35,428 bases of DNA from NCBI GenBank assembly GCA_964610335.1, contig CAZSVP010000002.1, positions 212,887 through 248,314 of the forward strand, given 5' to 3'. Position numbers and translations under genes: made by a program. The notes beneath the pieces were generated by a model, which searched no databases, had not been told where the DNA came from, and saw only the letters and a program-made list of their open reading frames with translations. This document shows, piece by piece, positions 6,998 to 33,465 of the stretch. Every line of letters begins with the position of its first letter. The first letter of the stretch is position 1. Origin of the DNA: an uncultured Candidatus Saccharibacteria bacterium. Lineage in GTDB: Bacteria; Patescibacteriota; Saccharimonadia; CAILAD01; BJGX01.

Positions 6998-7523
6998 TGC
7001 GACTCCGTTTAATTCTGCGTATAGCCTCTTGCAGTATCACTCGCGTGGCTTTGTACTCTAGTATCTCACATGCCGTGGTTTCATCAAACCACTTCACGTC
7101 GACAATTCCTTCGGAACTTTCGGGCAACACAACTTCATCGAGTTTTGTAGACTCAATCAAGAATATAAATGTTGTCATAAATATCAGTTTGCCACGCATA
7201 CGATAAAAAAAATGGATTTTATCGAGCTTGTCGACAATCTTAAGTTCACGCAAGCCAGTCTCTTCGGTTACTTCACGCAAGGCAGTTTGTTCGAGCGTCT
7301 CTCCGGCTTCAACATGGCCTTTTGGTATACTCCAGCGCTCCTTGAGATCCTGCAGCAATAGTATTTGTAATCCGCCATCTATAATGCGAAATATTATCCC
7401 ACCTGCCGTATATTCTCGTACAGCCTTAGCACGCAACGATTGTCGAGATGGCTTATGCTTCTTCGTTGATTGGTTCGTTACCTGATTTGTCGGATTGGGC
7501 TTTCTTGTCTTCTTTTGGGTCAT
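6990..7523 (-). CDS. NUDIX hydrolase
   Basis: Perfect Nudix box GHVEAGETLEQTALREVTEETGL (GX5EX7REUXEEXGU). The track start at 7553 is a TTG lying 100 nt inside nusB, so the ATG at 7523 (MTQKKTRK...) is preferred. Even that start overlaps the nusB tail by ~70 nt, so the start is uncertain. Confidence 0.8.
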   Translation of the reverse strand: MTQKKTRKPNPTNQVTNQSTKKHKPSRQSLRAKAVREYTAGGIIFRIIDGGLQILLLQDLKERWSIPKGHVEAGETLEQTALREVTEETGLRELKIVDKLDKIHFFYRMRGKLIFMTTFIFLIESTKLDEVVLPESSEGIVDVKWFDETTACEILEYKATRVILQEAIRRIKRSRNV

Positions 7524-7956
7524 AAAATTCACTTTGTCTATAAATGGTGCCAAGCACCCCGTTTACAAATTTACTTGAGTTGTCACCACCAAATGCCTTG
7601 GCTAGCTCAACAGCTTCATTGATGGCTACTTTGGGTGGCACTTCGCGCTTGATCATGAGCTCGTATAGTGCCATACGCAATATAGAGCGATCTATCTTGG
7701 CAATCTGTTCGATTGGCCACTCCGGTGCCGCAGGCGTAATCATGCCGTCAATCTTCTCTTGATTGTCCAATGTGCCTTTCACCAAGTCGGTGATAAAATC
7801 TTTTTCTTCAAGCGCATCAGCGTAAACAGCGATGTTGCGGCTTACTACTTCGTCAATATCAGTTTTGAGCTCTGGCATTTCCAAACTATTACGGAAATCA
7901 TACTCATATAGACTCTGGAGAGCTATGATTCGGCAAAGGTGTCGGTTGGATGCCAT
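7453..7956 (-). CDS. nusB: Transcription antitermination factor NusB (with charged C-terminal tail)
   Basis: 167-aa ORF with NusB-like helices (RIIALQSLYEYDF..., DRSILRMALYEL, VAINEAVELAKAFG, KFVNGVLG). Confidence 0.9.
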   Translation of the reverse strand: MASNRHLCRIIALQSLYEYDFRNSLEMPELKTDIDEVVSRNIAVYADALEEKDFITDLVKGTLDNQEKIDGMITPAAPEWPIEQIAKIDRSILRMALYELMIKREVPPKVAINEAVELAKAFGGDNSSKFVNGVLGTIYRQSEFYDPKEDKKAQSDKSGNEPINEEA

Positions 7957-12820: not shown

Positions 12821-13995
12821 TGGTTGAACGCCTTTGCTATTTCAACAGCCATAGACTCAGTAATATGCCGGTGTGTTGGCAAGTTAATAATTTGTGAAGC
12901 AGCTTCATCAGCTACCGGGCATTGATGATCATAGGTGGTTTTACTAAGATATCTGGCCGGCGCAATTGGTGTGTCGTACCAAGTATCTGATATGTATATA
13001 TGCTTCTTTTGCAACGCGCTAAAAACCTCACGACGGTTCTCTACATAGGCCGCAAAACGAAGATTGGTAGAGCGTGATACTGATTCAGATGAGGTGTTTA
13101 CCAACCTTGCCCTGCACAAATTCTCCTGGTAGATTTTACCAAGCTTGCGTCGACGTAATAATTCAGTAGGCAACAACTCCAATTGTGCTAAAGCGAGTTT
13201 GGCCTGCCAGTCGCTCAAGCCGTGACCTTCATAATATTCTGCGTCCACAGAGCGTGACATAAAACCCAACTTGCGAAAAGCTGCATGCACCAATTTGCCA
13301 AGACCAATTTTGTATGCCCAACGAACCTTCATGCTAAGTAACGGATACCATTTGTCATGACGCTGTGCAGACTTGGGTGGATCAGAAAGTCTACTAGGCA
13401 AAGAGTCTAAGTACTTGTGGTTATTTATTACCAAGGCACCACCAGACACGCTATCAATCAGTTTGTCACGTCCAAAACTTAGCATAGCAAAATCCCCAAC
13501 CGTCCCAACCTCACGCCCATCTATGTAACGGGCACCGATACTGTGTGCTAAATCTTCAACTAAAACAAGTTTGTGTCTCTGGCATATCTTCTCTATTCCC
13601 ACAATATCACAAGGGTTCCCCAAAGTGTTTTGAACAATCACTGCCTTGATTTTAGGATGCTTTTCTATTGCTTTTGCCAATGTGTCTGCTGAGAATTGCA
13701 AACTATCTCGCTCGATATCCAAATAGTATGGTTTAAGCCCAGCAAACGTGATCGCACGGTAAACGGCGTAGCAGGTAAACCCGTTGATAGCTACTTGAGC
13801 ATCGGAGCCCAATCCAGCAGCCTTCAAGGCTAGTTGTAGTGCCTCGCGCCCCTTATAGGTCAGTACTACTTCTGATTTGTAACGATTTTGAAGATATTCA
13901 GCTAGTTTATCGCCGGCACCCTTGCTTCTAGAAAAAAGAGATTGCCAAACCATCCTACCGCTGTAGTTTGACCCGAGAGAATTAAAAACAATCAT
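12808..13995 (-). CDS. DegT/DnrJ/EryC1/StrS-family PLP-dependent aminotransferase
   Basis: 395-aa ORF with the family pattern VEDLAHSIGA and a PLP-lysine region FAMLSFGRDKLIDSVSGGAL. ATGA start/stop overlap with the upstream hydrolase gene. Confidence 0.8.
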   Translation of the reverse strand: MIVFNSLGSNYSGRMVWQSLFSRSKGAGDKLAEYLQNRYKSEVVLTYKGREALQLALKAAGLGSDAQVAINGFTCYAVYRAITFAGLKPYYLDIERDSLQFSADTLAKAIEKHPKIKAVIVQNTLGNPCDIVGIEKICQRHKLVLVEDLAHSIGARYIDGREVGTVGDFAMLSFGRDKLIDSVSGGALVINNHKYLDSLPSRLSDPPKSAQRHDKWYPLLSMKVRWAYKIGLGKLVHAAFRKLGFMSRSVDAEYYEGHGLSDWQAKLALAQLELLPTELLRRRKLGKIYQENLCRARLVNTSSESVSRSTNLRFAAYVENRREVFSALQKKHIYISDTWYDTPIAPARYLSKTTYDHQCPVADEAASQIINLPTHRHITESMAVEIAKAFNQCQQ

Positions 13996-14684
13996 TTCAA
14001 CACCTCATCAATAATGTCGCCCACTTGATTTGGATGGGTATAGAAGGGTGCATGACGCGCATCCTCAATCACGTGTAGTTGTGCGCCAGCTATTTTGGCA
14101 GCCAGGAGCTTACCATCACCTAATGGGGTAAGTTTGTCTTGCGCTCCCCATATAAGCTGCGTTGGGACCGTAATATTCTTTGGCACAAGACCTTTATCGT
14201 CATGGCTTAGATTTACCATGGTCTGCTGCATATTGGGTGGTGCTTGCTCATAGTCATGTGCCCTAGCCGACCGATACAGTAGCTTCCGAAGTTTGGCAGA
14301 TTTAGTTAGTTTTTTGCCTAACTTGGCGGCATTACCAAACACTGCTTTTTTTAATCGCAGTTTCGGCTCGTTATGATACACGCCAGCGCTATCTATAAGT
14401 ATTAGTTGTCTCACGAGCTTAGGATATTTGATGGCAAAGGCCATGCTTATTCTGCCGCCGTTTGAGTGACCGACGAGCACCACTGGGCTACTTGCTTTTA
14501 CAATCTCACCGTGCAACCACTCTACGTATTTATCAAGGTTCCAAACATTCTGTGACGGAGCTGTCAGCCCAGGTACGTGAAGCATGACTGACTCTATGTT
14601 TTTCTCATCTCGCAGATACTTCATAATTTGCTGCCATTTATCTGTGTTGTAGGCCCAGCCATGAACTATATATATTTTCTTCAT
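13992..14684 (-). CDS. Alpha/beta-fold hydrolase
   Basis: Nucleophile elbow GHSNGG and a C-terminal catalytic His region (IEDARHAPF). The start is placed at MKKIYIVHGW (ATG 14682-14684), which forms an ATGA overlap with the Mur-ligase stop. The track start at 14714 would overlap by 34 nt. Confidence 0.8.
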   Translation of the reverse strand: MKKIYIVHGWAYNTDKWQQIMKYLRDEKNIESVMLHVPGLTAPSQNVWNLDKYVEWLHGEIVKASSPVVLVGHSNGGRISMAFAIKYPKLVRQLILIDSAGVYHNEPKLRLKKAVFGNAAKLGKKLTKSAKLRKLLYRSARAHDYEQAPPNMQQTMVNLSHDDKGLVPKNITVPTQLIWGAQDKLTPLGDGKLLAAKIAGAQLHVIEDARHAPFYTHPNQVGDIIDEVLK

Positions 14685-15946
14685 AGTCCCCAAGCCCTTC
14701 GCCGCTTCTCCCAAATCGTCTCACGACGACACAGTTTGTCGGCATCAGCAGAGTTTGCCAACAAATGCTCTATTACACCTTCCATAAATCGTGTGCCCTT
14801 AAACAATATAGTTTCATTACCACGAATGTCTTGCAGGAGTAAGTCGAGTACTTGACGAGGCGATTCCAAGCTAACGTGCTTTATTCCTAGACCATCTAGC
14901 GCTGGTGATGTAAACTTCTTAGTTCGAGGACCCATGATTACTATCTTATCAGCTTTTACTGCGACAATGGCAGCCGCAAGCTGTTCATGTACCTGCTGTT
15001 CATTGGCGCCTTGCTCCAATATGTCACTCACTACCAGCCACTTAGTTTTGACCGACAGTTTAGCGTACATAGATAACATAGCCTCAGCAGCATCGAGTGA
15101 AGCGTTGTAAGTACTATCAATCAGTGTTGTGTGTTTTATTCCCTCGAAGACAGAACTTCGACCAGGCGGCAATACAAAGTCTCTAAAACTTTTATCAAAC
15201 TGGATTGTCAACTTGGTGGTCAAAATTGCTGTTGCAAGAATTGAAAGACCTATCTCTTGAGGGACCAACTCAGGGACACTAACATGTCTGGGTAAACCTG
15301 GTTGTTGATCAAACTGAAAACTAGTTTCATGTAGGGTAGGTTCGTAACCAACTATAGCCTGCTCAGACAGTTTGAAAACATCTGTTTGCGTGCGATCTAG
15401 CTGTTCCGTTATACCTGGGTTACCAATATTTACAACCACAAAATCGCTTGCTGCTTCGACTAGGTAGCCGTACTCATGAGCTATAGCCGATTCAACAGTG
15501 TCAAATTGCCCACTAGTTACCAACTTATCAAAGTTCATAGCATGTGTTTGGGTACTAGACAACCAAACCACGCCATTTGGTCTAAGTAAACTTGCCAAAA
15601 ACTCACCTTCCTGCGGTCGATCACAATCAACTTCTACAATATAGATGTTCTGTGGAAAAGGTTTCTTGAATGCCTTAAATGGTGCCGAGCATATCAATCC
15701 AATCCATTCTGATTTTGCAAAACGTTTGCGAGCTAGTCCAAGTATGTCAAAACAAACCCCATACGCGCTATTGGCATGATGTGAGTATCGAGCCTTGGCA
15801 CCAAGCTGTGCCTCCACCAAGTGTAGTGTCGTAGTCTTGCCACTGGAGCCAGTAATTACAAATATCCTGGGTTTCCAGCGACGCAGCTGTACTCTTGCCC
15901 ATAGCCTGAAGTAGCCTGCCAAAACAAAGTAAAATCGCTTTTTCAT
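14681..15946 (-). CDS. Mur ligase-family protein (MurF-like central and C-terminal domains, no N-terminal domain)
   Basis: 421-aa ORF with a P-loop ITGSSGKTTT at residue ~32 and the Mur-ligase motif LIDSTYNASLDA. The C-terminal domain is present. Confidence 0.8.
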   Translation of the reverse strand: MKKRFYFVLAGYFRLWARVQLRRWKPRIFVITGSSGKTTTLHLVEAQLGAKARYSHHANSAYGVCFDILGLARKRFAKSEWIGLICSAPFKAFKKPFPQNIYIVEVDCDRPQEGEFLASLLRPNGVVWLSSTQTHAMNFDKLVTSGQFDTVESAIAHEYGYLVEAASDFVVVNIGNPGITEQLDRTQTDVFKLSEQAIVGYEPTLHETSFQFDQQPGLPRHVSVPELVPQEIGLSILATAILTTKLTIQFDKSFRDFVLPPGRSSVFEGIKHTTLIDSTYNASLDAAEAMLSMYAKLSVKTKWLVVSDILEQGANEQQVHEQLAAAIVAVKADKIVIMGPRTKKFTSPALDGLGIKHVSLESPRQVLDLLLQDIRGNETILFKGTRFMEGVIEHLLANSADADKLCRRETIWEKRRRAWGL

Positions 15947-20668: not shown

Positions 20669-21358
20669 CTACTGAGATACGTGCTGCCAGTGCCATGGTT
20701 CGTAGATTACGCCAAGCTGATTGCTTATGGGATATGATTCTACGAATCCAAACCTCGAAGCATTGGTCTTGAGCCACTCATACTGAGGCGTACGAGTAAA
20801 TGACTCTAAATCTTCAGCGTACCCTTCTGGAATACGTGTAGGCATTACATCCATAGCTTGAGCTCGAGGATAGCCATGCTGACTGTAGCCAGGCAATGCC
20901 ACCCTACTGGCAGTTTCGGCCACATTGTATTCATTCTTCTTCAATATTTCTATAAACACCACGATTTGATAGGCTGGCGAGCGATAGCCAGAATTCACCA
21001 ACACTTGCTCACCAATGTCGGCCTTCATAGCCCTATTGAGCTCGGTATAAGCATCAAAAACACTTTTTGGCAGAAACTGCGTGCCAATTATTTTCTCTTC
21101 ATCAATATCGACATATTTTTGGCCAGTGATTCTCACCAGGTCACTTGGTGCATCACTGATACCCAAAAACCCCCCTTTAAACCCGTAGTCGCGCGGCTTC
21201 AGCTTGAGTAGCTTCTTGACCACGACCACTTCTGACTTGGTAAGTAAAGCATAAAGATCATCGAAGCTCATGATGCGTAAATCCATTTCGTTACGCCTTG
21301 CTTTAAGTTTTTCGATAATAGCTGATATATGCTCTCGATCAGTGGCTGAAACAATCAT
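20669..21358 (-). CDS. VanY / peptidase M15B-family D-alanyl-D-alanine carboxypeptidase
   Basis: Motifs SGYRSPAYQ, GYSQHG...AMDV and YEPWHWQH. The track ORF (to 21490) reads through tRNA-Ala and its terminator. The start is therefore placed at ATG 21356-21358, 6 nt downstream of a TATAAT box. Confidence 0.85.
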   Translation of the reverse strand: MIVSATDREHISAIIEKLKARRNEMDLRIMSFDDLYALLTKSEVVVVKKLLKLKPRDYGFKGGFLGISDAPSDLVRITGQKYVDIDEEKIIGTQFLPKSVFDAYTELNRAMKADIGEQVLVNSGYRSPAYQIVVFIEILKKNEYNVAETASRVALPGYSQHGYPRAQAMDVMPTRIPEGYAEDLESFTRTPQYEWLKTNASRFGFVESYPISNQLGVIYEPWHWQHVSQ

Positions 21359-21364
21359 ACCTAC

Positions 21365-21370
21365 ATTATA
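21365..21370 (-). promoter_or_regulatory. -10 box TATAAT, 6 nt upstream of the VanY-like ATG (leaderless-type)
   Basis: The minus strand reads gacTATAATgtaggtATG, directly after the tRNA terminator. Confidence 0.5.
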
Positions 21371-21382
21371 GTCACAAACCAT

Positions 21383-21409
21383 AAAAAAACCCGCCATAGT
21401 TGGCGGGTT
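21383..21409 (-). terminator. Rho-independent terminator after tRNA-Ala
   Basis: The minus strand reads AACCCGCC-aactat-GGCGGGTT followed by TTTTTTTA. Confidence 0.8.
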
Positions 21410-21420
21410 CAAATAATAAC

Positions 21421-21496
21421 TGGTGGAGCATGCCGGGTTCGAACCGGCGACCTCATCCATGCCATGGATGCGCGCTACCAACTGCGCCAATGCCCC
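21421..21496 (-). tRNA. tRNA-Ala (anticodon GGC), CCA encoded
   Basis: The reverse complement folds as a 76-nt cloverleaf. Acceptor GGGGCAT/ATGCTCC contains G3:U70. D arm GCGC-AGTTGGTA-GCGC. Anticodon arm CATCC-AT GGC AT-GGATG. Variable loop AGGTC. T arm GCCGG-TTCGAAC-CCGGC. The 3' end is ACCA. Confidence 0.93.
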
Positions 21497-26248: not shown

Positions 26249-26621
26249 TCATGGCACGTTGTTTACGCAACGGCAATCCTTTTGGTAAAAGTTGTTGGGC
26301 ACGGTTGGAACTATCAAATTCATCAACTAACACCACTGGTAGTTTGGTGTGTTGTTGCAATCGTTTGGCAAACAACTCAACAGTTGTGGTCTGGCTAGTT
26401 TTCTCAGCATCAGTATTGCGCGGCCAACCCAACACTATCAGATCTGGCTGAAAGCGACGTAGTAAAGCTCGTAGCGACGTCCAGAACTGATCATCTTGAT
26501 CGACAGTAGAAACTACTTCTACCTGATCTGTACCTGACGCTTTAATTGCCACGCCGACTCGTTTACTGCCATAGTCCAAAGCCAGAATGGTAGTACTAAG
26601 CTTACTGCTCGGTCGAGACAT
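26190..26621 (-). CDS. ruvX: Holliday-junction resolvase-like nuclease RuvX/YqgF
   Basis: 143-aa ORF with ILALDYGSKRVGVA near the N-terminus and DEFDSS...AAKIILQDYL at the C-terminus. Confidence 0.88.
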   Translation of the reverse strand: MSRPSSKLSTTILALDYGSKRVGVAIKASGTDQVEVVSTVDQDDQFWTSLRALLRRFQPDLIVLGWPRNTDAEKTSQTTTVELFAKRLQQHTKLPVVLVDEFDSSNRAQQLLPKGLPLRKQRAMIDQYAAKIILQDYLQERTK

Positions 26622-28206
26622 CGATCTCTACTTTTATTCGACTACTCAGTAGCGGCATAAATGGCATAAGTGCAGGGTTTGAATTGACTGTGGCGCCAGT
26701 GACCTGATCATTCTTGGACTTAGCAATGTCGGCTACCGCCTTCTTGGGCTTACCAGCTGATTCGCGTGCAATCGCTTCAGTATCAAGCCGATCACCATAA
26801 AATGCCGTGGTGCTGGCTTGGATCTGCATGGTCTCACCCGTAGCCTTAAAATTACTGTATTTGGCTGAGTCGGCGCCACTTTGGTAGATCTGTTGGTCAG
26901 AGCTCAGGTCCCTCTTGGCTTGAGCTTCAAACAAGGCATTGAGTTCCTTGTCGAGTACTGCAAAGGCAGTGTTTTTGACCTTTAGAGTAAGCGTAACTGT
27001 CCCACTAGCCTCGGTACCTTCAGCGACTGACGGGGTAGCGCTCACTGTCTCTGTTTTGAAACTATCTACAAATACAAAGTACTGATCACCAGCCTTATCT
27101 ATCAGATCTTGTTTGAGATTACTACCCAACTGTCCTTGAGCCTGAGCAGTTGCCTTCTTGACATCGTCGGCGCTGACAACTGTTACCACCTTACTTGTAC
27201 CACCGGAGGTTGACCCAGTAGCCTTGTAGAGATTGGAGAATCCGTTGATGGCAAATGTAGTAGTTGGAAGATTGTAACTATCACCGTTTTGAGCGGCTGT
27301 AATGCCCACATCCACACCAGAAGAACAATTAACTACTCCACCACCGGCGGAGCCGGCTGGTATAGTAACGGTCGAATTAGTAGTAAAAGCTTTACCACTA
27401 GATGTCACTGTGGTGCCGCTAGCTAAGTTATGAGTACTCGTGTCGTCGCAATTCTTGACGGTAATTGTGCCGGTAGCCTTGCTACCTACATCTTTTTGGC
27501 CAGTGGCTGAGAATGTAGCCACACTATCTTTGGTATTCTCTATCTTTTGAGCAGCCACTATGCCGGCCCCATAGTCACTTTTGGTAGTGCTAGCATCGGC
27601 CGTAAAACGGAAGTTGAGTGGCTGCTTCTTGGCCTTGGTTTGCACACTAACATTGGCTGTTGGCAAAAATACGTAGGCCAATATAAGTATGATTAGCACA
27701 CCTACGCCGCCCGCTACCCAAAGCAGTTTCTTATTGAGCCCATTGAAGTTGGGCACCTTGGGTTGTTTCTTTACTTTACTATCAGCTGTAACTACACGAT
27801 CCTTGGGCAACTTGGTATTGACCGGGATATCATCGTCTTGATCTTGGGTAGCAGACTTTTTGGACTTTTCTGGCTTACTATCGTCAATCATAGTAGGCGT
27901 GTCACTAGCTGGTGGTGGGGCGTCATCGGCCGAGGGTACAGCGGCATCGGCTTTGACATTGCGGGCGACTGCCAGCCCAAGCATGCCAGCTAGTCCGGTA
28001 GCAGCCTTGTCAGTAGTGACAAGTACCAGATCTTTGTGGCTGTCGTGGGCAGCTTTCTTGAGCAATTTCAGGTTAACTGCGCTTTGCAACAAGCCAGATC
28101 GGGCTGGTGCAACTACGCGGACTTCATCACCTTTGGCTCCCTTGAGCTTTTCGATCGCTTCGGTGATTTCAGTGTCGTTGTCGAGATAGAGGATGTCTGG
28201 AGTCAT
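26602..28206 (-). CDS. Hypothetical single-pass membrane protein with large extracytoplasmic Thr/Ser/Gly-rich domain
   Basis: 534-aa ORF. It has a ~90-aa N-terminal cytoplasmic domain, an acidic linker, a TM helix (LLWVAGGVGVLIILILAYVFL) and a beta-rich T/S/G/V C-terminal ~350 aa. No motif recognised. Confidence 0.6.
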   Translation of the reverse strand: MTPDILYLDNDTEITEAIEKLKGAKGDEVRVVAPARSGLLQSAVNLKLLKKAAHDSHKDLVLVTTDKAATGLAGMLGLAVARNVKADAAVPSADDAPPPASDTPTMIDDSKPEKSKKSATQDQDDDIPVNTKLPKDRVVTADSKVKKQPKVPNFNGLNKKLLWVAGGVGVLIILILAYVFLPTANVSVQTKAKKQPLNFRFTADASTTKSDYGAGIVAAQKIENTKDSVATFSATGQKDVGSKATGTITVKNCDDTSTHNLASGTTVTSSGKAFTTNSTVTIPAGSAGGGVVNCSSGVDVGITAAQNGDSYNLPTTTFAINGFSNLYKATGSTSGGTSKVVTVVSADDVKKATAQAQGQLGSNLKQDLIDKAGDQYFVFVDSFKTETVSATPSVAEGTEASGTVTLTLKVKNTAFAVLDKELNALFEAQAKRDLSSDQQIYQSGADSAKYSNFKATGETMQIQASTTAFYGDRLDTEAIARESAGKPKKAVADIAKSKNDQVTGATVNSNPALMPFMPLLSSRIKVEIDVSTEQ

Positions 28207-28302
28207 TTGGAAATTATTATAGCGTAAAAAACTTATCCTTGCAGGATTGGCTTGTTCAATTGTAACGAACTAGTCAACAGGTCCGTGACTAACTGAGACG
28301 TA

Positions 28303-28330
28303 TTGACTTATCACGTTTTTATGATATTAT
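28303..28330 (+). promoter_or_regulatory. Sigma70-type promoter TTGACT-16-TATTAT of GC-rich cassette B
   Basis: Read directly. It is followed by a ~45-nt 5' UTR containing a direct repeat ATCAGAAC (28343-28350 and 28362-28369), and by SD GGAG 4 nt before the ATG. Confidence 0.6.
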
Positions 28331-28380
28331 TGCTGTCAGCGAATCAGAACACAAGGTTTTGATCAGAACCCTGGAGCACA

Positions 28381-28728
28381 ATGCGTACCTATTCTTATCC
28401 CTACAAGCAGCCCAGCAACTACTTGGTCTCTGGTGGACGCTGCGACGGAATGGCTGTCGATCGCGAGGCACTGGAGCGCTTCTGGCGCGGTGGCCTCACC
28501 GAGGCTGGCAACGCCTTCATCGACGCAGTCTTCAGCTTCCATGAGGTATATGCCCTGGAATGTGCTTTCATGCACTGTGTCATCCGCGTCCATACCACAA
28601 CGCCGCTCAATGAAGAGCGCAAGGTGTTGCTCGATCGCCTCTTCGAGCTGATGGACAACCTGCAGAGCTGGGCCTTCGCGCAAGACGCTCGCTCCGAGAT
28701 CATCGAGGTCAATCAGGCCTCGATCTAG
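28381..28728 (+). CDS. GC-rich orphan ORF, 115-aa cytosolic hypothetical protein (cassette B)
   Basis: The frame is supported by SD GGAG (28373-28376) and by G/C at the third position of 86 of 115 codons (hand count). It has its own promoter and terminator. No family recognised. Confidence 0.6.
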   Translation: MRTYSYPYKQPSNYLVSGGRCDGMAVDREALERFWRGGLTEAGNAFIDAVFSFHEVYALECAFMHCVIRVHTTTPLNEERKVLLDRLFELMDNLQSWAFAQDARSEIIEVNQASI

Positions 28729-28729
28729 C

Positions 28730-28771
28730 CCCGCTCACCTACCGCAAAACCTGCCGGGTGGGCGGGTTTTT
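28730..28771 (+). terminator. Rho-independent terminator of cassette B, convergent with the ftsA 3' end
   Basis: CCCGCTCACC...GGTGGGCGGG stem (one G-U pair) followed by TTTTT. The ftsA stop codon is 4 nt further on the opposite strand. Confidence 0.65.
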
Positions 28772-28774
28772 GCA

Positions 28775-30082
28775 TTATAATGACAATGTGCGGCTAAGTC
28801 GCTGCATAACCGACTCACCCAAGCTCTCACTCCCTACTACATCGAGCCCCAGATTGGCCAAGCCCATCGGCGTTATATCTTGCGGGCTATGCAAACTGTC
28901 GGTGGTATCTATAACATGATTGACATCGCGAGGCATCACAAAGCTGATGTTGGGCTTGCGCACAAACGGCAAGCCCTTGTGCCAATCGGTCTCATTGAGG
29001 GCATGTTTGATCTCAGGCAAACCGCTACCACCACCGCAAAGCATGATGCGAGTAGGCAGATGATCGAGCCGCTCAAACTCACTAAGTGCCAGTTCTACCC
29101 CACTCAGCCAGGTCTCAACATCGGTCTCAAGGGCTTTACTTACTTGTCGATCTTGGCTTTCGCTAAGTTTGCCAGCGGCGTGTTTGAGCTTGAGCTCTTC
29201 GGCTTCGTCGAAGCTTATACCAAACTCATTGGCCAGCCGCTTAGTAAAGCTGCGCCCACCGATTGCAAACATCTGGGTACCCTCTACACCACCGTTGTTT
29301 ACCACTGCGATGTCGGAGGTTCCGCCGCCAATGTCTATAAATATGGCGCTGAACTCTGTGCTATCGTCGGTACCGACTGACTTAGCCACCGCAAATGGCT
29401 CTGCAGCAATATTGATAAGATTGAGATCTAGATCAGCCGCGACAGTTTGGAGCGCTCCTAAATGAACCATAGGAGCAAAAGCATTGAATACTTGAATAGT
29501 GACATCGCGACCTTGGAACCCGACTGGATTGGTAACACGATAGCCATCGATGGTGACATCCACAATTGCAGCATTGACTAGCTTAACTTCGAGCTCGTCG
29601 TTGCCAGTTTCCCAGCTGAGCTGTTTACGAACCTCCTCGAAAGCTTGTTTTTGGATCCGCTCGATTATATCCATCAGCTCAGTTTGGTCTATTTTGACAT
29701 CGGGCTTGTTGCGCCGATAGCTCACCGCGGTAGTGCCTCCGCGCACCAACTCACCAGCTATTCCTATTACGGTGTCTTTGGCAACTAACCCAGCCACTTC
29801 CTCGGCTTGACGCAACGCGGCATCACAGTTCTCTACCACTCCTGATATGTCAGTGACTGCTCCGCCAGCCATGTCAGTGAGACGCTGTCGCTGCTTGCCA
29901 CTACCTATAATCTCTACAACTTCACGCTGCTTGCCAGTCTTATGATCCTTCTGATTGGAAACTTTGCCAATCAGTGCTTTGACGTACTCAGTACCAATAT
30001 CGAGCGACACTATATACTGTGGCCCATCTGGTTTCTTGGGAGATGATTTTTTACTCGAAAACTTTGGCAGGTGAAATTTCAT
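28775..30082 (-). CDS. ftsA: Actin-like ATPase, cell division protein FtsA family
   Basis: 435-aa ORF with phosphate-1 SLDIGTEYVKALIG, phosphate-2 IFIDIGGGTSDIAVV and adenosine motif IMLCGGGSGLPEI. No ftsZ lies downstream in this window. Confidence 0.78.
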   Translation of the reverse strand: MKFHLPKFSSKKSSPKKPDGPQYIVSLDIGTEYVKALIGKVSNQKDHKTGKQREVVEIIGSGKQRQRLTDMAGGAVTDISGVVENCDAALRQAEEVAGLVAKDTVIGIAGELVRGGTTAVSYRRNKPDVKIDQTELMDIIERIQKQAFEEVRKQLSWETGNDELEVKLVNAAIVDVTIDGYRVTNPVGFQGRDVTIQVFNAFAPMVHLGALQTVAADLDLNLINIAAEPFAVAKSVGTDDSTEFSAIFIDIGGGTSDIAVVNNGGVEGTQMFAIGGRSFTKRLANEFGISFDEAEELKLKHAAGKLSESQDRQVSKALETDVETWLSGVELALSEFERLDHLPTRIMLCGGGSGLPEIKHALNETDWHKGLPFVRKPNISFVMPRDVNHVIDTTDSLHSPQDITPMGLANLGLDVVGSESLGESVMQRLSRTLSL

Positions 30083-30585
30083 ATGCTTATGTAATAGTGT
30101 AGCTGTTATTGACCTATAGTGCCAGGTCTATGCCCGATATAGAAATAGATCTTTTTTGTCTTTCGCTCCAAGCTTCGCTTACTGGAGCAAGCTTCTTTTG
30201 ATGGACCAAAAGAAGCCAAAAGTCCTTTGGCACGGACGCATTACAGGAGCGTTCAACAACTTCAACTTTCTGGTTTGGCCGCTGTGCCAAAGATTGGACT
30301 CGCGCTCTGCAACCAGAAGTGTCAAAGTTCTTTCACTTCCTGATTGCTTTAGTGCCATTAAGGATCTTAAATTCGGCATTAAAGCCAACTGTAAAACAAA
30401 CTAGTTTGAATGCTTACAAGTGAGGACTGTCCGAAGAACGCTAGTGATGAGTTCCGCAGCTTGGAAAGTGAAAGCTAGCTTGTTGCTACAGTTTGGTGTC
30501 CATGCCGTTGGGTTTTGCGCCGCTTTTGACCAAGTAAAAGCGGATCGACCCTTAAGGACGAAATTCCTTGCTAAAAAAGTTATGG

Positions 30586-30614
30586 TTCAAACCAACAATT
30601 CCATCTGCTATACT
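30586..30614 (+). promoter_or_regulatory. Candidate promoter TTCAAA-17-TATACT of cassette C
   Basis: Read directly, ~38 nt upstream of the ATG. SD GAGGAGG lies at 30641-30647. Confidence 0.4.
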
Positions 30615-30652
30615 TACCTCACCCTGAAAACCAAAGAGACGAGGAGGTTGTT

Positions 30653-31495
30653 ATGTCTCCGTCGGAGGACTTTCACAGACTTGAAACTGACCTGGCCGAT
30701 GCCGAAGGGATCATTGCCCAAGAGGCCGCCGAGCTGACCGACCAGGCTGCCGCTAGGTGGCAACGTGAGCTCGATCGCATGCTTGAGCCGATCCTCGGCA
30801 AGTACGTGCGCGAAGATCCATCGGAGTACAGCTGGACAGTGCGCAACAGTGCCAATCTCATCACTTTGGGACGTGGACTGCTCACCCTGGCACTGTTCTT
30901 CCCGATGCGCCGGGCCCGCAGCTACCGCATGCGAGTGCTGGTGGCAGTGCTGGCACTGATCGTGATTGCCTTCGACCTGGTCGATGGTGGGGTGGCTCGC
31001 AAGCTGCGCATCACCAGTGTTTTCGGCAAGGCAATCGATCCGCTGATGGACAAGCTGTTCTTCGTGTTGATCGGCTGGGCCACGCTCGAGATCTTCCGTG
31101 GCGGGGACAACAAGTTCTACTACCGTCTGCTGCAGCTGCTGTTTGCCATCGCTGCTGCACTGGAGCTCGATGTGGCCATCAACGGCACGCAGCAAGGAAT
31201 CTTGGCCTGGCGCTGCGACCGACTGGAGCCCGACAACAAGGCCAAGCTCACTGGTGCAACCGGCAACGGCAAGATCAAGTTCCTGATGCAGGTTGCGGCC
31301 GTTGGAGTCGCTCTGTTCACACCCGATCTACGCAAGGCGCTGATCAGGTTTGCAGCGCTGCTGGGCATCGCTACCGTGTTCAGTCGCCGCAGCAATCATG
31401 ACCACCGCGAGGAGGTCGTGGCGCTCAAGGCCGAGCTGCAAGCTCGCAAGTCACGTGTCAACAAGACGGTCGCCTATGGCCAATCAGCCGGCTAG
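30653..31495 (+). CDS. CDP-alcohol phosphatidyltransferase-family membrane protein (GC-rich cassette C)
   Basis: Exact family signature D(x)2DG(x)2AR(x)8G(x)3D(x)3D as DLVDGGVARKLRITSVFGKAIDPLMD (nt 30974-31051). There are ~6 TM helices, an unusual ~60-aa soluble acidic N-terminal extension and a strong SD GAGGAGG. Confidence 0.85.
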   Translation: MSPSEDFHRLETDLADAEGIIAQEAAELTDQAAARWQRELDRMLEPILGKYVREDPSEYSWTVRNSANLITLGRGLLTLALFFPMRRARSYRMRVLVAVLALIVIAFDLVDGGVARKLRITSVFGKAIDPLMDKLFFVLIGWATLEIFRGGDNKFYYRLLQLLFAIAAALELDVAINGTQQGILAWRCDRLEPDNKAKLTGATGNGKIKFLMQVAAVGVALFTPDLRKALIRFAALLGIATVFSRRSNHDHREEVVALKAELQARKSRVNKTVAYGQSAG

Positions 31496-31512
31496 CGATT
31501 TCAGGCATTATT

Positions 31513-31563
31513 GATCCACCTCGGCTCCTACACCAGGGAGCTGAGGTGGATCGACCTGTTTTT
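31513..31563 (+). terminator. Terminator of cassette C
   Basis: 16-bp stem GATCCACCTCGGCTCC-tacacca-GGAGCTGAGGTGGATC (one G-U pair), then cgacctg and TTTTT. Confidence 0.6.
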
Positions 31564-31643
31564 ATACTGTTACTAGTAATTACACCATATTTGTAGTACT
31601 ATTTGTTTCACCAACTTCTCTGTCGACAACAAGGGGGTAATCC

Positions 31644-31985
31644 GTGAGAAGAGCACGTTCATGGGGCAAGGAGTTCTGGGCCATCATGCGCAACGTCTAC
31701 AGTTGCGATGACACGCTCACCGAGCTGATCATCAGCGACAACGATCAGTACTGCGGCGAGTGCGAGCGGCACACCAAGCCCAAGGTGGATATCGAGCGAG
31801 TTCTGCGCTGCGACCACTGCGAATCTCGATTCGCCTGGCTGGTGGATCTCCATGGTTCGAGCGATCTGGGGCGGATCCTGATCCTACGACATGGCCATCA
31901 GCTCGAGCAAGTCCCGGCTCTCGCCAAGCACCACCAAATCGCCCAGCGTCGCAGTCATCTGCGCCACACCGTCAAGGCGCGCTAG
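31644..31985 (+). CDS. GC-rich small zinc-ribbon protein, 113 aa (cassette D)
   Basis: GTG start 6 nt after AAGGGGG. An alternative in-frame ATG lies at 31686. Two CxxC pairs (CGEC, CDHC) ~15 aa apart suggest a zinc ribbon, and the C-terminus is basic and His-rich. No clear promoter found. Confidence 0.5.
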   Translation: MRRARSWGKEFWAIMRNVYSCDDTLTELIISDNDQYCGECERHTKPKVDIERVLRCDHCESRFAWLVDLHGSSDLGRILILRHGHQLEQVPALAKHHQIAQRRSHLRHTVKAR

Positions 31986-31998
31986 CGCGCCACCATAG

Positions 31999-32050
31999 GC
32001 CTCTGCCAGATAGCAAAACGACCTTCGCTACCCGGCGGAGGCTCGTTTTG
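31999..32050 (+). terminator. Terminator of cassette D
   Basis: GCCTCTGCC...GGCGGAGGC (or the inner CGACCTTCGC/GCGGAGGCTCG) stem followed by TTTTG. Confidence 0.5.
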
Positions 32051-32068
32051 TATCTGTAGACTATCTAT

Positions 32069-32097
32069 TTGACAAATGTTTGTTTTTATAGTATAAT
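32069..32097 (+). promoter_or_regulatory. Perfect consensus sigma70 promoter TTGACA-17-TATAAT (cassette E)
   Basis: Read directly as TTGACA aatgtttgtttttatag TATAAT. The ~68-nt 5' UTR contains the hairpin CTTTCTCC-aatg-GGAGAAGG. Confidence 0.75.
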
Positions 32098-32165
32098 CTG
32101 TTAACTTTCTCCAATGGGAGAAGGGCGGAGTAAACCCCAATCCCATCAAGCACCCAGGAGGAATC

Positions 32166-32780
32166 ATGGGGGGAAGTTCATTGAAGACAGCAAAACCACA
32201 CGTCCCCGGACAGGAGGCGATGTGGCTCGCACAAGGAGCTCGGAGCTGCTGCAGCGAATGCGGCATCATCTCGCTCTACGTCAGGCACGGCGATCTCTGT
32301 CCAGGTTGCGGACTGGAGTTCGTCACGGCAGGTCCGATCACGGACACCACCGACAACTGGCGTGCGATCGATCGCTTCGGCGCCGACTACTTCGAGCTGC
32401 CACTCCAGGCAGAGCTCGAAGCCGCCAAGCACGCCCACCAACTAGCTCGGCAACGCGGGTACTGGCTGATCAGCATCGTAGGATTGATGCTGGTTCTGGC
32501 ACTGGTGTTCGGGGTGATGTGTTTCATCAACGCCACCACCAACCCCGTCACCTGCGAAGGTGAGCAGACCATCCAGCTCACCCAGTCGCAGCTGGATCAG
32601 GCCGGTGGCAGCACCATGGACCTCACCAAGGCCATCGCAGCCGATGAGTTGCCCAGCCCCGGCTACGACCAGTTCGAGGTGGCACGGTACATCGACCAGA
32701 TGAACCCCCAACTCGAGGCCAAGGCCAACATCGGCGACAGCGTCACCATCCCGGCCCGCTGCTACCGCGCCAGCGACTAG
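32166..32780 (+). CDS. GC-rich membrane-anchored zinc-ribbon protein with extracytoplasmic C-terminal domain, 204 aa (cassette E)
   Basis: SD AGGAGG 4 nt before the ATG. N-terminal CCSEC...CPGC zinc ribbon and one TM helix (YWLISIVGLMLVLALVFGVMCFI). The ~80-aa C-terminal domain weakly resembles LysM (ARYIDQMNP...IGDSVTIP). Confidence 0.65.
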   Translation: MGGSSLKTAKPHVPGQEAMWLAQGARSCCSECGIISLYVRHGDLCPGCGLEFVTAGPITDTTDNWRAIDRFGADYFELPLQAELEAAKHAHQLARQRGYWLISIVGLMLVLALVFGVMCFINATTNPVTCEGEQTIQLTQSQLDQAGGSTMDLTKAIAADELPSPGYDQFEVARYIDQMNPQLEAKANIGDSVTIPARCYRASD

Positions 32781-32805
32781 CAGCAAGCCCTCGCGGACAA
32801 GGACT

Positions 32806-32843
32806 CGAAAAGAGCCCCTGCCCCGCGGGGGCTCTTTTCGTAT
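32806..32843 (+). terminator. Terminator of cassette E (bidirectional type)
   Basis: Perfect 13-bp stem CGAAAAGAGCCCC-tgccccgc-GGGGCTCTTTTCG, a GC core flanked by A- and T-tracts. Confidence 0.7.
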
Positions 32844-32852
32844 CTGAACAAA

Positions 32853-32881
32853 TTGCAAACTACTAACAATATCCATATAAT
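32853..32881 (+). promoter_or_regulatory. Near-consensus promoter TTGCAA-17-TATAAT (leaderless-type) for the P-loop gene
   Basis: Read directly. The -10 box ends 2 nt before the first ATG (32884) and 8 nt before the second ATG (32890). Confidence 0.65.
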
Positions 32882-32883
32882 CA

Positions 32884-33465
32884 ATGATTATGTACAAAAG
32901 TGAATTTGAAACACTACCGTTTAGTACTCCAGTGGTATTTGCAGACGGTACCAAGTATTGGAATGACTTAAGTAAGAAATTTATTCAACACAAGCGTGGT
33001 TTTTTTATTCTTGGTCCTTCTGGCTCGGGCAAAACACATTTTGTAAAAAGTCAAAAAGAAAAACATTGGATAGATGGCGACAAACTTTGGGAATCGTCAA
33101 AAGCGCACCCGCAGGGTGAATGGTGGCTCGAAAGTGGTGAGGTAATTCAAAAGATTGATCAGCGAGCTGATGTTATGACCGTACAAGCGATGATGCTTGG
33201 ATTCTGGATAATTGGCGCATCGAACCAATTCTTAAAACCAGATGCAATAATTATTCCCCATTGGGCTACACACAAGAAATATATTCGTCACCGCGAGCAA
33301 CATGGCTACGACGGTGGTGCCAAATCAGATGCATTTGATCAGGTATTGTGGCATCGTAACTGGATACTACAATGGGCCAAAAAGGGAGTACCAAAATTCA
33401 AATCTGCGTTTGATGCTGAAAAGTATCTACTCGAAAAGTACAAAAAAGAGCTTGGCTTAGCTTAG
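32884..33465 (+). CDS. P-loop NTPase / kinase-like protein
   Basis: 193-aa ORF with Walker A GPSGSGKTHF and low GC like the core genome. Given the -10 position, the true start is more likely the second ATG at 32890 (a leaderless mRNA). Confidence 0.7.
   Translation: MIMYKSEFETLPFSTPVVFADGTKYWNDLSKKFIQHKRGFFILGPSGSGKTHFVKSQKEKHWIDGDKLWESSKAHPQGEWWLESGEVIQKIDQRADVMTVQAMMLGFWIIGASNQFLKPDAIIIPHWATHKKYIRHREQHGYDGGAKSDAFDQVLWHRNWILQWAKKGVPKFKSAFDAEKYLLEKYKKELGLA

Follow-up and report, generated by a model that had tools for sequence, protein, structure and literature searches.

Introduction

O-antigen and capsule gene clusters are cassette-type hypervariable surface loci that lie between conserved flanking genes. 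Among the CDP-alcohol phosphotransferases, the PIP synthases and AF2299 possess a cytoplasmic juxtamembrane helix before TM1. The PgsA of S. aureus (SaPgsA) binds the 3′-phosphate of glycerol-3-phosphate through Lys83, Arg110, Arg118, Lys137, and Tyr181, and contacts CDP-diacylglycerol (CDP-DAG) through Asn5, Arg65, and Lys135 (PMC8640168). For the Saccharibacteria, the CdsA and PgsA steps have been predicted, three CDP-alcohol-type enzymes have been annotated in some members, and the idea that scavenged lipids are remodelled with head-group transferases has already been published (PMC6031116). The Saccharibacteria are also naturally competent (PMC11665869).

The window analysed here, a stretch of 35,428 nucleotides, derives from an organism in activated sludge whose nearest GTDB genomes are Saccharibacteria MAGs (≤61% Obg identity), in agreement with the reduced CPR host supposed in an earlier reading of the sequence alone (the sequence-only reading). 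That reading had singled out a GC-rich CDP-alcohol phosphatidyltransferase. Taken together, the analyses suggest that this gene probably encodes a functional, Saccharibacteria-specific CDP-alcohol phosphotransferase, its activity being predicted, that occupies a variable slot beside an ftsA-like gene and whose alleles are exchanged by recombination. The hypervariability of the slot is the new element.

An intact CDP-alcohol phosphotransferase

The enzyme is encoded on the forward strand (30653..31495, 280 aa; ORF call, Pfam, and homologue alignment), beginning at the first start codon past the upstream stop. A Shine-Dalgarno sequence (GAGGAGG, 30642..30648, +) has the ATG 5 nt downstream and, when the in-frame starts among the first 80 codons were compared, such a sequence was present at codon 1 only. 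A consensus scan identified a promoter-like site (TTCAAA-17-TATACT, with a TG ahead of the -10 hexamer; 30586..30614, +), and we infer that it drives the enzyme gene as its promoter. Metatranscriptome contigs, which are assembled and may contain DNA carry-over and reads of relatives, cover 30643–30878 and 30931–31826 of the gene region, one of them thus beginning near the promoter-like site. Directly past the stop codon lies an intrinsic-terminator-like hairpin (19-bp stem and T run; 31511..31554, +), which implies that the gene is a single-gene transcription unit.

The protein matched Pfam PF01066 over residues 65–239 (E = 4e-15, 57 bits against a gathering cut-off of 22), which excludes a chance match. 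Bases 30974..31051 (+) translate to DLVDGGVARKLRITSVFGKAIDPLMD (residues 108–133), an exact D(x)2DG(x)2AR(x)8G(x)3D(x)3D signature made up of D108, D111, G112, A115, R116, G125, D129, and D133, and followed by K134. Six hydrophobic segments were apparent from hydropathy (66–85, 92–114, 127–149, 156–180, 206–224, and 225–244), and the AlphaFold2 model (mean pLDDT, 76.9), with seven helices, agrees with them, placing the signature across TM2 and TM3 of a six-TM core. The best Foldseek matches were all PIP synthase, PgsA, or AF2299, with TM-scores (0.30–0.64) that are low because the enzyme has added helices. Across the allele types described below the signature residues are invariant in alignment, and the donor-side positions identical in all types comprise N68, R74, D108, D111, G112, R116, G125, D129, P130, D133, K134, E171, G206, K207, K209, and S247, while TM4, TM6, and both termini are least conserved.

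Compared with the relative at locus L001, the overall dN/dS of the enzyme was 0.097, a low value for a comparison within one allele type that indicates purifying selection; with the catalytic motif intact, this led us to reject a pseudogene or spurious GC-rich ORF. Two opposite-strand ORFs (30614..31195 and 31120..31395) were rejected as genes and regarded as by-products of GC-rich DNA. Sequence and structural model together confirm a real, intact membrane protein of the CDP-alcohol phosphotransferase class, and the family assignment made in the sequence-only reading was upheld by the Pfam match, the exact signature, and the six hydrophobic helices. A link to the Lipocone superfamily was discarded, as the paper concerned names CDP-alcohol enzymes merely as unrelated analogues.

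Helical appendages at both termini

Codons 1–60 (30653..30832, +) form an N-terminal extension that, from alignment, AlphaFold2, hydropathy, and pN/pS, is predicted to be cytoplasmic. Residues 1–30 are an acidic helix with a net charge of -8, and residues 21–54 are strongly amphipathic (hydrophobic moment, 0.5–0.62) and constitute a juxtamembrane helix, for which that of the PIP synthases and AF2299 is the nearest precedent. The structure prediction that had been proposed as a check returned a long helix over residues 3–51; a Foldseek search aimed at explaining the extension retrieved, past family members, only generic helical-bundle matches. The extension aligns in 19 homologue clusters (51–98% identity, 238–286 aa), except in P0009, which at 238 aa covers just 85% of the query, and ten of its positions are invariant among the clusters (E24, W36, L40, L44, P46, G49, Y51, P56, Y59, and W61). 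Over codons 1–60 pN/pS was 0.08 against L001, the relative with 95% identity.

With the Shine-Dalgarno sequence at codon 1 only, this conservation, and the low pN/pS, a start-codon artefact was rejected, and the ~60-aa acidic helical segment reported from the sequence alone is real. Its novelty is partial: an N-terminal segment before TM1 occurs in all allele types, and only the acidic stretch over the first ~30 residues is confined to the allele type of the window. The sequence-only reading had named as evidence against itself a clustering with the lineage's own pgsA together with a true start further downstream; the protein does cluster with the lineage's locus-specific homologues, yet the extension stands.

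All slot allele types combine the N-terminal segment with a C-terminal helix that bears an S-x3-H motif. In the window this helix, RRSNHDHREEVVALKAEL (31385..31438, +; alignments), is also predicted to be cytoplasmic, and within it FSRRSNHDHREEV is invariant within the window allele type, save for the second E, which is nearly so. S247 was found in 11 of 11 allele types; at the position of H251, most types have H and some have Y. Both sets of appendages, acidic and amphipathic at the N terminus and basic at the C terminus (the S-x3-H helix), would lie in the cytoplasm on the side of the active site; their most likely role is to form or control the entrance for the acceptor or to dock a partner.

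Relation to characterised enzymes and predicted chemistry

The closest characterised enzyme is PgsA. The two share the superfamily fold, the same eight-residue signature on TM2–TM3, and a GKxK motif at TM5 (G206-K207-I-K209, at the start of the helix; 31268..31279, +), which in alignments falls on Lys135 and Lys137 of SaPgsA (PMC8640168). SaPgsA Asn5, Arg65, and Lys135 are kept as N68, R116, and K207, and Lys83 and Lys137 as K134 and K209; by sequence the best PDB match was likewise a PgsA (7drj, E = 2e-4), and of the structures compared PgsA reached the highest TM-score. In contrast to PgsA, the enzyme has ~60 extra N-terminal and ~35 extra C-terminal residues. In a TM4 alignment of ~25% identity and low confidence, mapped through a bona fide PgsA (P0057), L172 and Q180 take the positions of Arg110 and Arg118, the latter position being R or K in some allele types; the mapping covered four of the five phosphate-binding residues, Lys83, Arg110, Arg118, and Lys137. 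TIGR00560 (pgsA) was the best NCBIfam match at 42.8 bits (41–57 bits for the other allele types), short of its equivalog cut-off of 109.1.

The PIP synthases and AF2299 (6WMV, 6H5A, 5D92, and 4O6M) were the top Foldseek matches with a probability of 1.0, but E-values were just 0.02–0.15 and TM-scores 0.30–0.47, and no counterpart was found in them to the acidic helix 1–30 or the S-x3-H C-terminal helix. The corresponding curated families scored below their cut-offs (PIP synthase NF045883, 19 bits against 170; archaetidylinositol-phosphate synthase NF040950, 25.2 against 180), as did PssA (TIGR00473, 22.9 against 107). The ClsA-type cardiolipin synthases (NF053678) rank second among the curated families for most alleles, and the core resembles that of PgsA, but with 24.5 bits against a cut-off of 240 membership is unsupported. 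Every curated subfamily threshold is thus missed, and the sequence-only reading holds in its view that sequence does not disclose the substrate. For the same reason the label ‘phosphatidylglycerophosphate synthase’ given to relatives by JGI is unjustified for the slot proteins.

The enzyme would be expected to take the phosphatidyl group from CDP-DAG at the cytoplasmic face and pass it to a hydroxyl acceptor, with two metals held by D108, D111, D129, and D133. We infer CDP-DAG as the donor because N68, R116, and K207 are conserved and align with the SaPgsA contacts, and it may be made from scavenged host lipid. As a rough weighting from sequence, some other or allele-specific acceptor would be the likeliest, closely followed by glycerol-3-phosphate, with phosphatidylglycerol (yielding cardiolipin) much less likely and inositol phosphate the least. 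The remodelling of scavenged lipids by a head-group transferase, which the sequence-only reading put forward for a reduced CPR host, is as an idea already in print (PMC6031116).

A hypervariable slot beside an ftsA-like gene

The divergent neighbour of the enzyme gene encodes an FtsA-like actin-fold protein (28775..30082, −; 435 aa) with Pfam matches to FtsA, PilM, and MreB, and a TIGR01174 (ftsA) score of 110 bits against a cut-off of 176. Back-to-back pairing with this gene was found in all 18 Saccharibacteria loci that carry the enzyme, and in most lineages the opposite flank of the slot is alaS. In L005 and L089–91 the pair is inverted as a unit. Occupancy of the slot varies: the slot of L177 contains, in place of the enzyme, a pair of WhiB genes and a 184-aa gene that has been relocated, alaS is directly followed by the ftsA-like gene in L012, L015, and L016, and in L093 and L178 WhiB genes are immediate neighbours of the enzyme gene. 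The pairing with the ftsA-like gene need not be functional and may simply mark a site of stable integration. Between the two genes lies a divergent intergenic region of 570 bp (30083..30652) whose centre (30130–30548), by strain comparison, is non-homologous between near-identical strains; a search for a structured RNA or riboswitch in it gave no Rfam match up to E = 5 and a fold z-score of -0.9.

The 18 loci carry 11 enzyme allele types that are 24–44% identical to each other, whereas the adjacent FtsA-like proteins are 72–100% identical, and the two identities are uncorrelated (Spearman ρ = 0.09, p = 0.27). For locus pairs with ≥85% FtsA-like identity, enzyme identity is bimodal, at either 73–100% or 26–44%. 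The clearest case is the pair L010 and L013, which share 87% DNA identity across ~20 kb and virtually identical FtsA-like proteins (pN = 0.004, dS = 0.81), while their enzymes (261 and 243 aa) are 38% identical and the coding sequences have no detectable DNA similarity. The breakpoints coincide with the ends of the CDS and the flanks are conserved on both sides, showing that replacement was confined to the coding sequence in at least one related genome pair, a pattern that fits homologous exchange better than rearrangement. Alleles would then be swapped when the conserved flanks recombine homologously, which is plausible given the natural competence of the Saccharibacteria (PMC11665869).

Conserved flanks, non-alignable alleles, and a distribution at odds with the flanks make this a cassette-type hypervariable locus. 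It resembles the O-antigen and capsule loci in its deeply divergent alleles, atypical base composition, and variable presence, and in a distribution that disagrees with the core phylogeny. It differs in that it holds a single gene for a cytoplasmic-face lipid enzyme, at times accompanied by WhiB genes or small orphans, and no multi-gene polysaccharide cluster; a surface role for the slot product would be by analogy. A fixed slot into and out of which very different versions are swapped points to an exchangeable accessory gene and not an ordinary housekeeping lipid gene.

Base composition and relatives of the enzyme gene

The GC-rich character noted from the sequence was confirmed, with a GC of 0.604 and a GC3 of 0.747 for the enzyme gene; the remaining 28 ORFs of the window average 0.413 in GC3 (sd, 0.043), which gives z = 7.8. 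The GC-rich tract extends from ~30600 to 32800 and takes in two more small genes. One of these (31644..31985, +) encodes a 113-aa zinc-ribbon-like protein with a GC3 of 0.75, its own terminator, a dN/dS of 0.18, and conservation in L001-4 and L174-176. The other, p204 (32166..32780, +; 204 aa, a zinc ribbon followed by one TM helix), has a GC3 of 0.80, a perfect sigma-70 consensus promoter (32069–32097; consensus scan), a terminator (32820–32832), and a dN/dS of 0.20. Just eight homologue clusters of p204 were retrieved, all at ≥68% identity, for which reason an actinobacterial origin was rejected; by this distribution p204 is a lineage-restricted orphan gene.

A profile search of 1.84 billion representative proteins identified no relative of the enzyme under E = 1e-30 outside its own family (one cluster only). 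The next best traceable matches were all Saccharibacteria proteins from the same slot, corresponding to L094 (P0020), L009 (P0021), L010 (P0023), and L178 (P0048, which alone among the clusters of distant members has a name that gives a taxon, Candidatus Saccharibacteria), with further matches close to L013 (P0022), L180 (P0027), and L181 (P0028). With all traced relatives from the Saccharibacteria slot, the enzyme gene was not imported from outside the phylum, and by sequence comparison the detectable full-length relatives are one slot-specific family, so far found in Saccharibacteria only. The family profile recovered no relative among the GTDB species representatives, so the window allele type is absent from them, and tblastn located other allele types there (L009, L010, and L013). 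A metagenome scan with a wider family profile returned mostly generic CDP-OH proteins, with L094, L095, and L109 as the informative loci. The description of the gene as foreign accordingly needs dividing: an origin outside the phylum is contradicted by a slot conserved in 18 of 18 loci, while horizontal exchange within the group agrees with the allele replacement.

Competing explanations

The most conventional explanation, an ordinary and vertically inherited housekeeping pgsA that is highly diverged like many CPR genes and has the extension as a clade-specific decoration, draws on TIGR00560 as the best NCBIfam match, the JGI naming, a locus conserved across the clade, the GKxK motif and K134 in common with PgsA, and the PgsA and CdsA steps predicted for Saccharibacteria (PMC6031116). 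It is nonetheless quite improbable, as the score is far under the cut-off and the gene behaves unlike a stable housekeeping gene, with 11 allele types, enzyme identity uncorrelated with flank identity, a clean replacement in L010/L013 at 87% flank identity, absence from the slot in L177, L012, L015, and L016, L172 and Q180 at the Arg110- and Arg118-aligned positions (at the low confidence of that alignment), and an atypical GC3 (a 7.8-sd outlier). The loss of these two acceptor-phosphate-binding arginines would fit an acceptor that lacks a terminal phosphate, as expected of a CDP-alcohol-type cardiolipin synthase using CDP-DAG and phosphatidylglycerol, and ClsA (NF053678) is the first or second NCBIfam match for several alleles, but scores of 24.5–42 bits against 240 leave this assignment rather unlikely.

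Base composition bears on a possible capture, of the gene by itself or of the GC-rich island as a whole, from an actinobacterial host of high GC content or one of its phages. The known hosts of Saccharibacteria in activated sludge, the habitat here, are mycolic-acid-producing Actinobacteria, and WhiB genes, elsewhere characteristic of Actinobacteria and of actinophages, adjoin the enzyme in L093 and L178 and occupy the slot of L177; the GC3 of the enzyme gene and its two neighbours (0.75–0.80 against a mean of 0.41) points the same way. Set against this are an exhaustive search without a close homologue outside the Saccharibacteria slot family, the eight p204 clusters at ≥68% identity, promoters and terminators of the AT-rich resident type, and the lack of any match in 50,697 phage records (tblastn of the enzyme and p204) or 72,556 plasmids (blastn of 30500–32900), by which phage and plasmid origins were rejected; capture is thus very improbable. 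The slot alleles could also be paralogues shuffled into the slot, with several such enzymes per genome (PGP, PI-phosphate, and cardiolipin synthases) rearranged next to the ftsA-like gene. Three such enzymes are annotated in some Saccharibacteria (PMC6031116) and family-specific terminal features common to all types are what paralogues would have, but the CDS-confined L010/L013 replacement with conserved flanks on both sides, the lack of a second family copy within 20–35 kb of sequence around any locus, and a count of only a few dozen full-length family representatives among the best 150 matches from 1.84 billion clusters, suggestive of about a single copy in each genome of a sub-clade, give this explanation a rather small chance. 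Recombinational exchange of alleles at one slot remains the preferred reading.

Implications

By analogy with surface loci, the slot might act as a lipid head-group ‘type’ locus, in which each allele attaches another alcohol to scavenged, CDP-activated host lipid, or reversibly acts on a different host phospholipid, and swaps through natural transformation retune the membrane to a new host or evade phages or host defences. This proposal is tentative and, on present indications, unlikely. If true, serotype switching would here have a counterpart built on one enzyme, and the slot would give a way into the question of how lipids are acquired and handled by CPR bacteria. Should the allele types differ in acceptor, the lipid chemistry of the membrane or surface would vary from strain to strain, with a possible bearing on host range and phage susceptibility; even if all types make one lipid, the repeated replacement of a core-looking enzyme gene needs explaining. 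Either way, the slot offers a concrete target, a family of head-group transferases specific to the lineage, with unusual appendages on the cytoplasmic side and cassette-like swapping amid conserved surroundings.

The GC3 excess likewise needs explaining, as it persists across lineages, with the enzyme exceeding its ftsA-like neighbour in 16 of 18 loci (mean excess, 0.13). It may stem from a distinct, GC-richer donor pool, from a recombination hot spot with GC-biased gene conversion, or from both. Across the ftsA-like gene from the enzyme, strain comparison revealed another GC-rich single-gene cassette (28268..28793, +), with an ORF of 115 aa (28381..28728; GC3, 0.75), that is absent from L001.

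The enzyme gene and its product

The open reading frame at 30653..31495 (+) is real and encodes a 280-aa protein in which bases 30974-31051 specify DLVDGGVARKLRITSVFGKAIDPLMD, a complete CDP-alcohol phosphotransferase signature, and residues 65-239 match Pfam PF01066 (E=4e-15; 57 bits, gathering score 22). Six membrane segments were recognised by hydropathy, and an AlphaFold2 model (pLDDT 76.9) contained a long N-terminal helix (residues 3-51) and six TM-length helices, with TM6 running on as a helix to residue 274. Both the enzyme class and the roughly six TM helices put forward in the sequence-only reading are thus borne out. The top structural matches of the model were exclusively PIP synthases, S. 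aureus PgsA or AF2299. A ribosome-binding site (GAGGAGG, +) lies 5 nt before the ATG, and a promoter-like site ahead of the gene (30586-30614, +) and a terminator with a 19-bp stem just past the stop codon (31511-31554, +) make it a self-contained transcription unit. Contigs from two wastewater or aquatic metatranscriptomes matched 30643-30878 exactly and 30931-31826 with some differences, which is supportive rather than conclusive of expression, as DNA carry-over and reads from related strains can enter such contigs.

A fixed slot with a replaceable occupant

Wherever a relative of the enzyme gene was obtained together with flanking DNA, it lies back-to-back with a gene for a 412-447-aa FtsA-like actin-fold protein (28775..30082, - in the window), for which the best curated match was ftsA TIGR01174 (110 bits, under the cut-off of 176). 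The ftsA-like gene is usually followed by genes for a ~530-550-aa membrane protein, RuvX, YceG, a LysM/CHAP protein and Obg, with alaS on the opposite side. In one clade (loci L005 and L089-L091), the ftsA-like and enzyme genes have flipped together with respect to the downstream operon (545-aa protein, RuvX, YceG), and the divergent arrangement is kept despite the inversion (compared with the window, L001 and L013). In three loci from more distant Saccharibacteria (L012, L015, L016), alaS directly adjoins the ftsA-like gene, and the enzyme gene is missing from the interval. The position divergent from the ftsA-like gene is here called the slot, and the version of the enzyme occupying it the allele type.

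Enzymes and FtsA-like proteins were compared across 18 loci, with types defined by single linkage at 50%. The FtsA-like proteins were 72-100% identical and the enzymes fell into 11 types with between-type identities of only 24-44%; the two sets of identities were uncorrelated (Spearman rho 0.09, p=0.27). Where FtsA-like identity reached at least 85%, the pairs had a bimodal distribution of enzyme identity (73-100% or 26-44%). The L005/L090/L091/L093 clade has the window's type (54-61% identity), with FtsA-like proteins that are only 72-75% identical to that of the window. L109 carries an FtsA-like protein 85-90% identical to those of this clade and an enzyme 26-31% identical to theirs. The clearest case of replacement is L010 versus L013, which share 87% DNA identity over ~20 kb and virtually identical FtsA-like proteins (pN 0.004, dS 0.81). 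Their enzyme coding sequences (261 and 243 aa, 38% identical) have no detectable nucleotide similarity. At the 5' end homology returns no more than a few bases from the start codon; at the 3' end it returns in a 62-bp block adjoining the stop codon, a block that takes in the last enzyme codons in L013. In L177, which is syntenic with L178 (flanking genes at 77-80% DNA identity), the slot lacks an enzyme gene and is taken up by a pair of WhiB genes and a relocated gene for a 184-aa product.

The conserved flanks, the lack of nucleotide similarity between the L010 and L013 coding sequences and the comparison of L177 with L178 require replacement, not gradual divergence; the simplest mechanism would be homologous recombination via the conserved flanking DNA. 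A recent review describes these bacteria as naturally competent, which offers a route for allele exchange, and calls lipid acquisition in the phylum unresolved (PMC11665869). Inside one allele type, evolution of the gene is normal, with a dN/dS of 0.097 for the whole gene and a dS of 0.29, close to the values of neighbouring genes, against the 95%-identical relative L001.

The surroundings of the slot also vary. The intergenic centre (30130-30548) is unrelated between the window/L004 and L001-3, with both flanking genes ~90% identical; it gave no Rfam match and its fold energy was not unusual. A 45-bp hairpin-containing segment (30184-30227) is inverted in L001 (8813-8769), a 51-base DNA assembly contig (30182-30232) had ~2.6 times the depth of its neighbours, and metatranscriptome contigs were identical to 30303-30502. 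On the far side, homology with close relatives stops at 32843 (compared with L001 from 11116 onward), beyond which the window has a P-loop protein (32884-33465) and two unknown genes and L001-L004 instead have PPDK_N, HATPase and fucosidase genes; the variable region therefore reaches past the GC-rich island.

Family placement and predicted substrates

Searching 1.84 billion representative proteins with a profile returned 14 clusters below E=1e-10, of which just one, that of the enzyme's own type, was also below 1e-30. Other slot alleles (239-298 aa) made up several of the matches that followed, and each of these has a pre-TM1 segment as well as a C-terminal helix with an S-x3-(H/Y) motif; clusters P0021, P0023 and P0048 were identical to the L009, L010 and L178 genes, respectively, and P0048 is labelled Candidatus Saccharibacteria. 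The window enzyme fell under every curated subfamily threshold (pgsA, 42.8 vs 109; ClsA, 24.5 vs 240; PIP synthase, 19 vs 170; PssA, 22.9 vs 107), as did the other slot alleles, and the name PgsA is not justified on the tests applied. Within the PgsA-like branch of the CDP-alcohol phosphotransferases, the enzyme is best seen as a new variant specific to Saccharibacteria. Residues kept in all allele types were N68, R74, D108, D111, G112, R116, G125, D129, P130, D133, K134, E171, G206, K207, K209 and S247, with conservation peaking in TM2-TM3 and TM5 and weakest in TM4, TM6 and both termini.

In S. aureus PgsA structures, Asn5, Arg65 and Lys135 contact CDP-DAG and Lys83, Arg110, Arg118, Lys137 and Tyr181 hold the head-group phosphate of glycerol-3-phosphate (G3P) (PMC8640168). 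Residues were mapped through P0057, a bona fide PgsA (140 bits), aligned to the 7DRJ chain and to the window protein. The enzyme's N68, R116 and K207 match the donor contacts, from which we infer that the donor would be CDP-DAG. K134 and K209 match Lys83 and Lys137, whereas the positions of Arg110 and Arg118 are L172 and Q180 in a low-identity TM4 alignment, which suggests, not securely, that the acceptor may be other than G3P or that G3P may be bound differently.

Published genome analyses propose that, unable to synthesise fatty acids, Saccharibacteria re-head scavenged lipids through CdsA and CDP-DAG-dependent transferases (PMC6031116); the re-heading idea is thus already in print. No cdsA or pls genes were found within the window. 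Two possible lipid-handling genes, a fatty-acid-hydroxylase-family ORF (6-515, -; Pfam E=2e-13) and an alpha/beta-hydrolase (13992-14714, -), belong to this genome thought unable to make fatty acids.

Terminal extensions

The N-terminal extension (codons 1-60, ahead of TM1) is real. A Shine-Dalgarno sequence occurs at codon 1 only, and pN/pS over these codons was 0.08 against L001. A search of 5.8 billion proteins gave 19 homologue clusters (238-286 aa, 51-98% identity), all but one of which (238 aa, covering only 85% of the query) aligned with the extension, where E24, W36, L40, L44, P46, G49, Y51, P56, Y59 and W61 were invariant. The earlier description of it as novel holds in part: it is present, whereas the pre-TM1 segment is a family trait found in other slot alleles, and type specificity is confined to the acidic tip. 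Residues 1-30 carry a strongly acidic net charge of -8, and an amphipathic helix spans residues 21-54 (hydrophobic moment 0.5-0.62). The basic C-terminal tail (+4) holds FSRRSNHDHREEV, which is invariant within the window's allele type, with a nearly invariant second E. Both ends of the six-TM enzyme would face inward, placing both added helices on the cytoplasmic, active-site side, where possible roles would be control of access for the acceptor or docking of a partner.

The GC-rich tract and its origin

The enzyme gene has a GC of 0.604 and, as its GC-rich description anticipated, a GC3 of 0.747 against a mean of 0.413 (sd 0.043) in the other 28 ORFs of the window (z=7.8). The tract (~30600-32800) also spans genes for a 113-aa protein (31644..31985, +), with a terminator-like site of its own, and a 204-aa protein (32166..32780, +), with a consensus promoter as well as a terminator-like site; at dN/dS values of 0.18 and 0.20, respectively, the two genes evolve under purifying selection. 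Both products have zinc-ribbon-like CxxC pairs and the 204-aa protein one TM helix; the two genes are kept alongside the enzyme gene in L001-4 and L174-176 and are missing from the remaining lineages with the window's enzyme type. A fourth GC-rich single-gene cassette, a ~500-bp insertion (28268-28793) between the genes for the 534-aa membrane protein and the FtsA-like protein, carries a 115-aa ORF (28381..28728, +; GC3 0.75) without a family match, with an apparent promoter and terminator of its own as read by eye; L001, a 92%-identical relative, lacks the insertion.

WhiB-like transcription-factor genes were found in L093 (3391-3651; Pfam PF02467, E=1.1e-15) and, as precomputed PF02467 matches, in L178 (3601-3855) and twice in L177 (3259-3513 and 3513-3812), either between the ftsA-like and enzyme genes or replacing the enzyme gene. 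Elsewhere, WhiB is characteristic of Actinobacteria, which usually serve as hosts of Saccharibacteria, and of actinobacterial phages; a literature search found no paper describing it in Saccharibacteria.

GC3 of the enzyme gene exceeded that of its ftsA-like neighbour in 16 of the 18 loci (mean excess 0.13), and other occupants of the region are GC3-rich as well, including WhiB (0.62-0.73), the 198-aa and 123-aa proteins of L091 (0.86) and L093 (0.76), and the window's 113-, 204- and 115-aa proteins (0.75-0.80). The WhiB genes suggest that Actinobacteria or their phages made some contribution to this stretch. For the enzyme itself, the profile search gave no close homologue outside the slot family, and phage and plasmid databases gave zero matches; the 204-aa protein is a lineage orphan. 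The GC excess could stem from a GC-richer donor pool within Saccharibacteria or from a recombination hot spot undergoing GC-biased gene conversion; the data are compatible with either. The term "foreign" applied by the sequence-only reading fits to the extent that the gene is exchanged, and not as an import from outside the phylum; it is best described as exchanged within the phylum at a fixed slot, where it acts as a replaceable cassette.

Host organism and other genes of the window

The expected CPR host agrees with Obg, for which the closest GTDB species representatives are Saccharibacteria MAGs at only 57-61% identity, and homologues of a neighbouring gene carry the public label Candidatus Saccharibacteria. 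The window sequence is present in activated-sludge metagenomes and includes genes for SMC, LeuRS, FemAB, a Mur ligase, a P-type ATPase, Obg, a LysM/CHAP protein, YceG and RuvX. The leucyl-tRNA synthetase (8389-11298, -; 969 aa) has an inserted NUDIX hydrolase domain (residues 404-503, Pfam E=2e-11), a NUDIX-box-like insert was seen by eye in the alanyl-tRNA synthetase of L016 (804 aa), and a separate NUDIX gene lies at 6990-7553. The mechanical ORF of a VanY-like carboxypeptidase (20669-21490, -) overlaps tRNA-Ala(GGC) (21421-21496, -), so its true start is probably further downstream. The 534-aa protein (26602-28206, -) matches no family, and its identity between lineages is 42-50%. A single TM helix separates its cytoplasmic N-terminal part from a large external domain rich in Thr, Ser and Gly; its gene always follows the ftsA-like gene, and it is possibly a partner of the FtsA-like protein.
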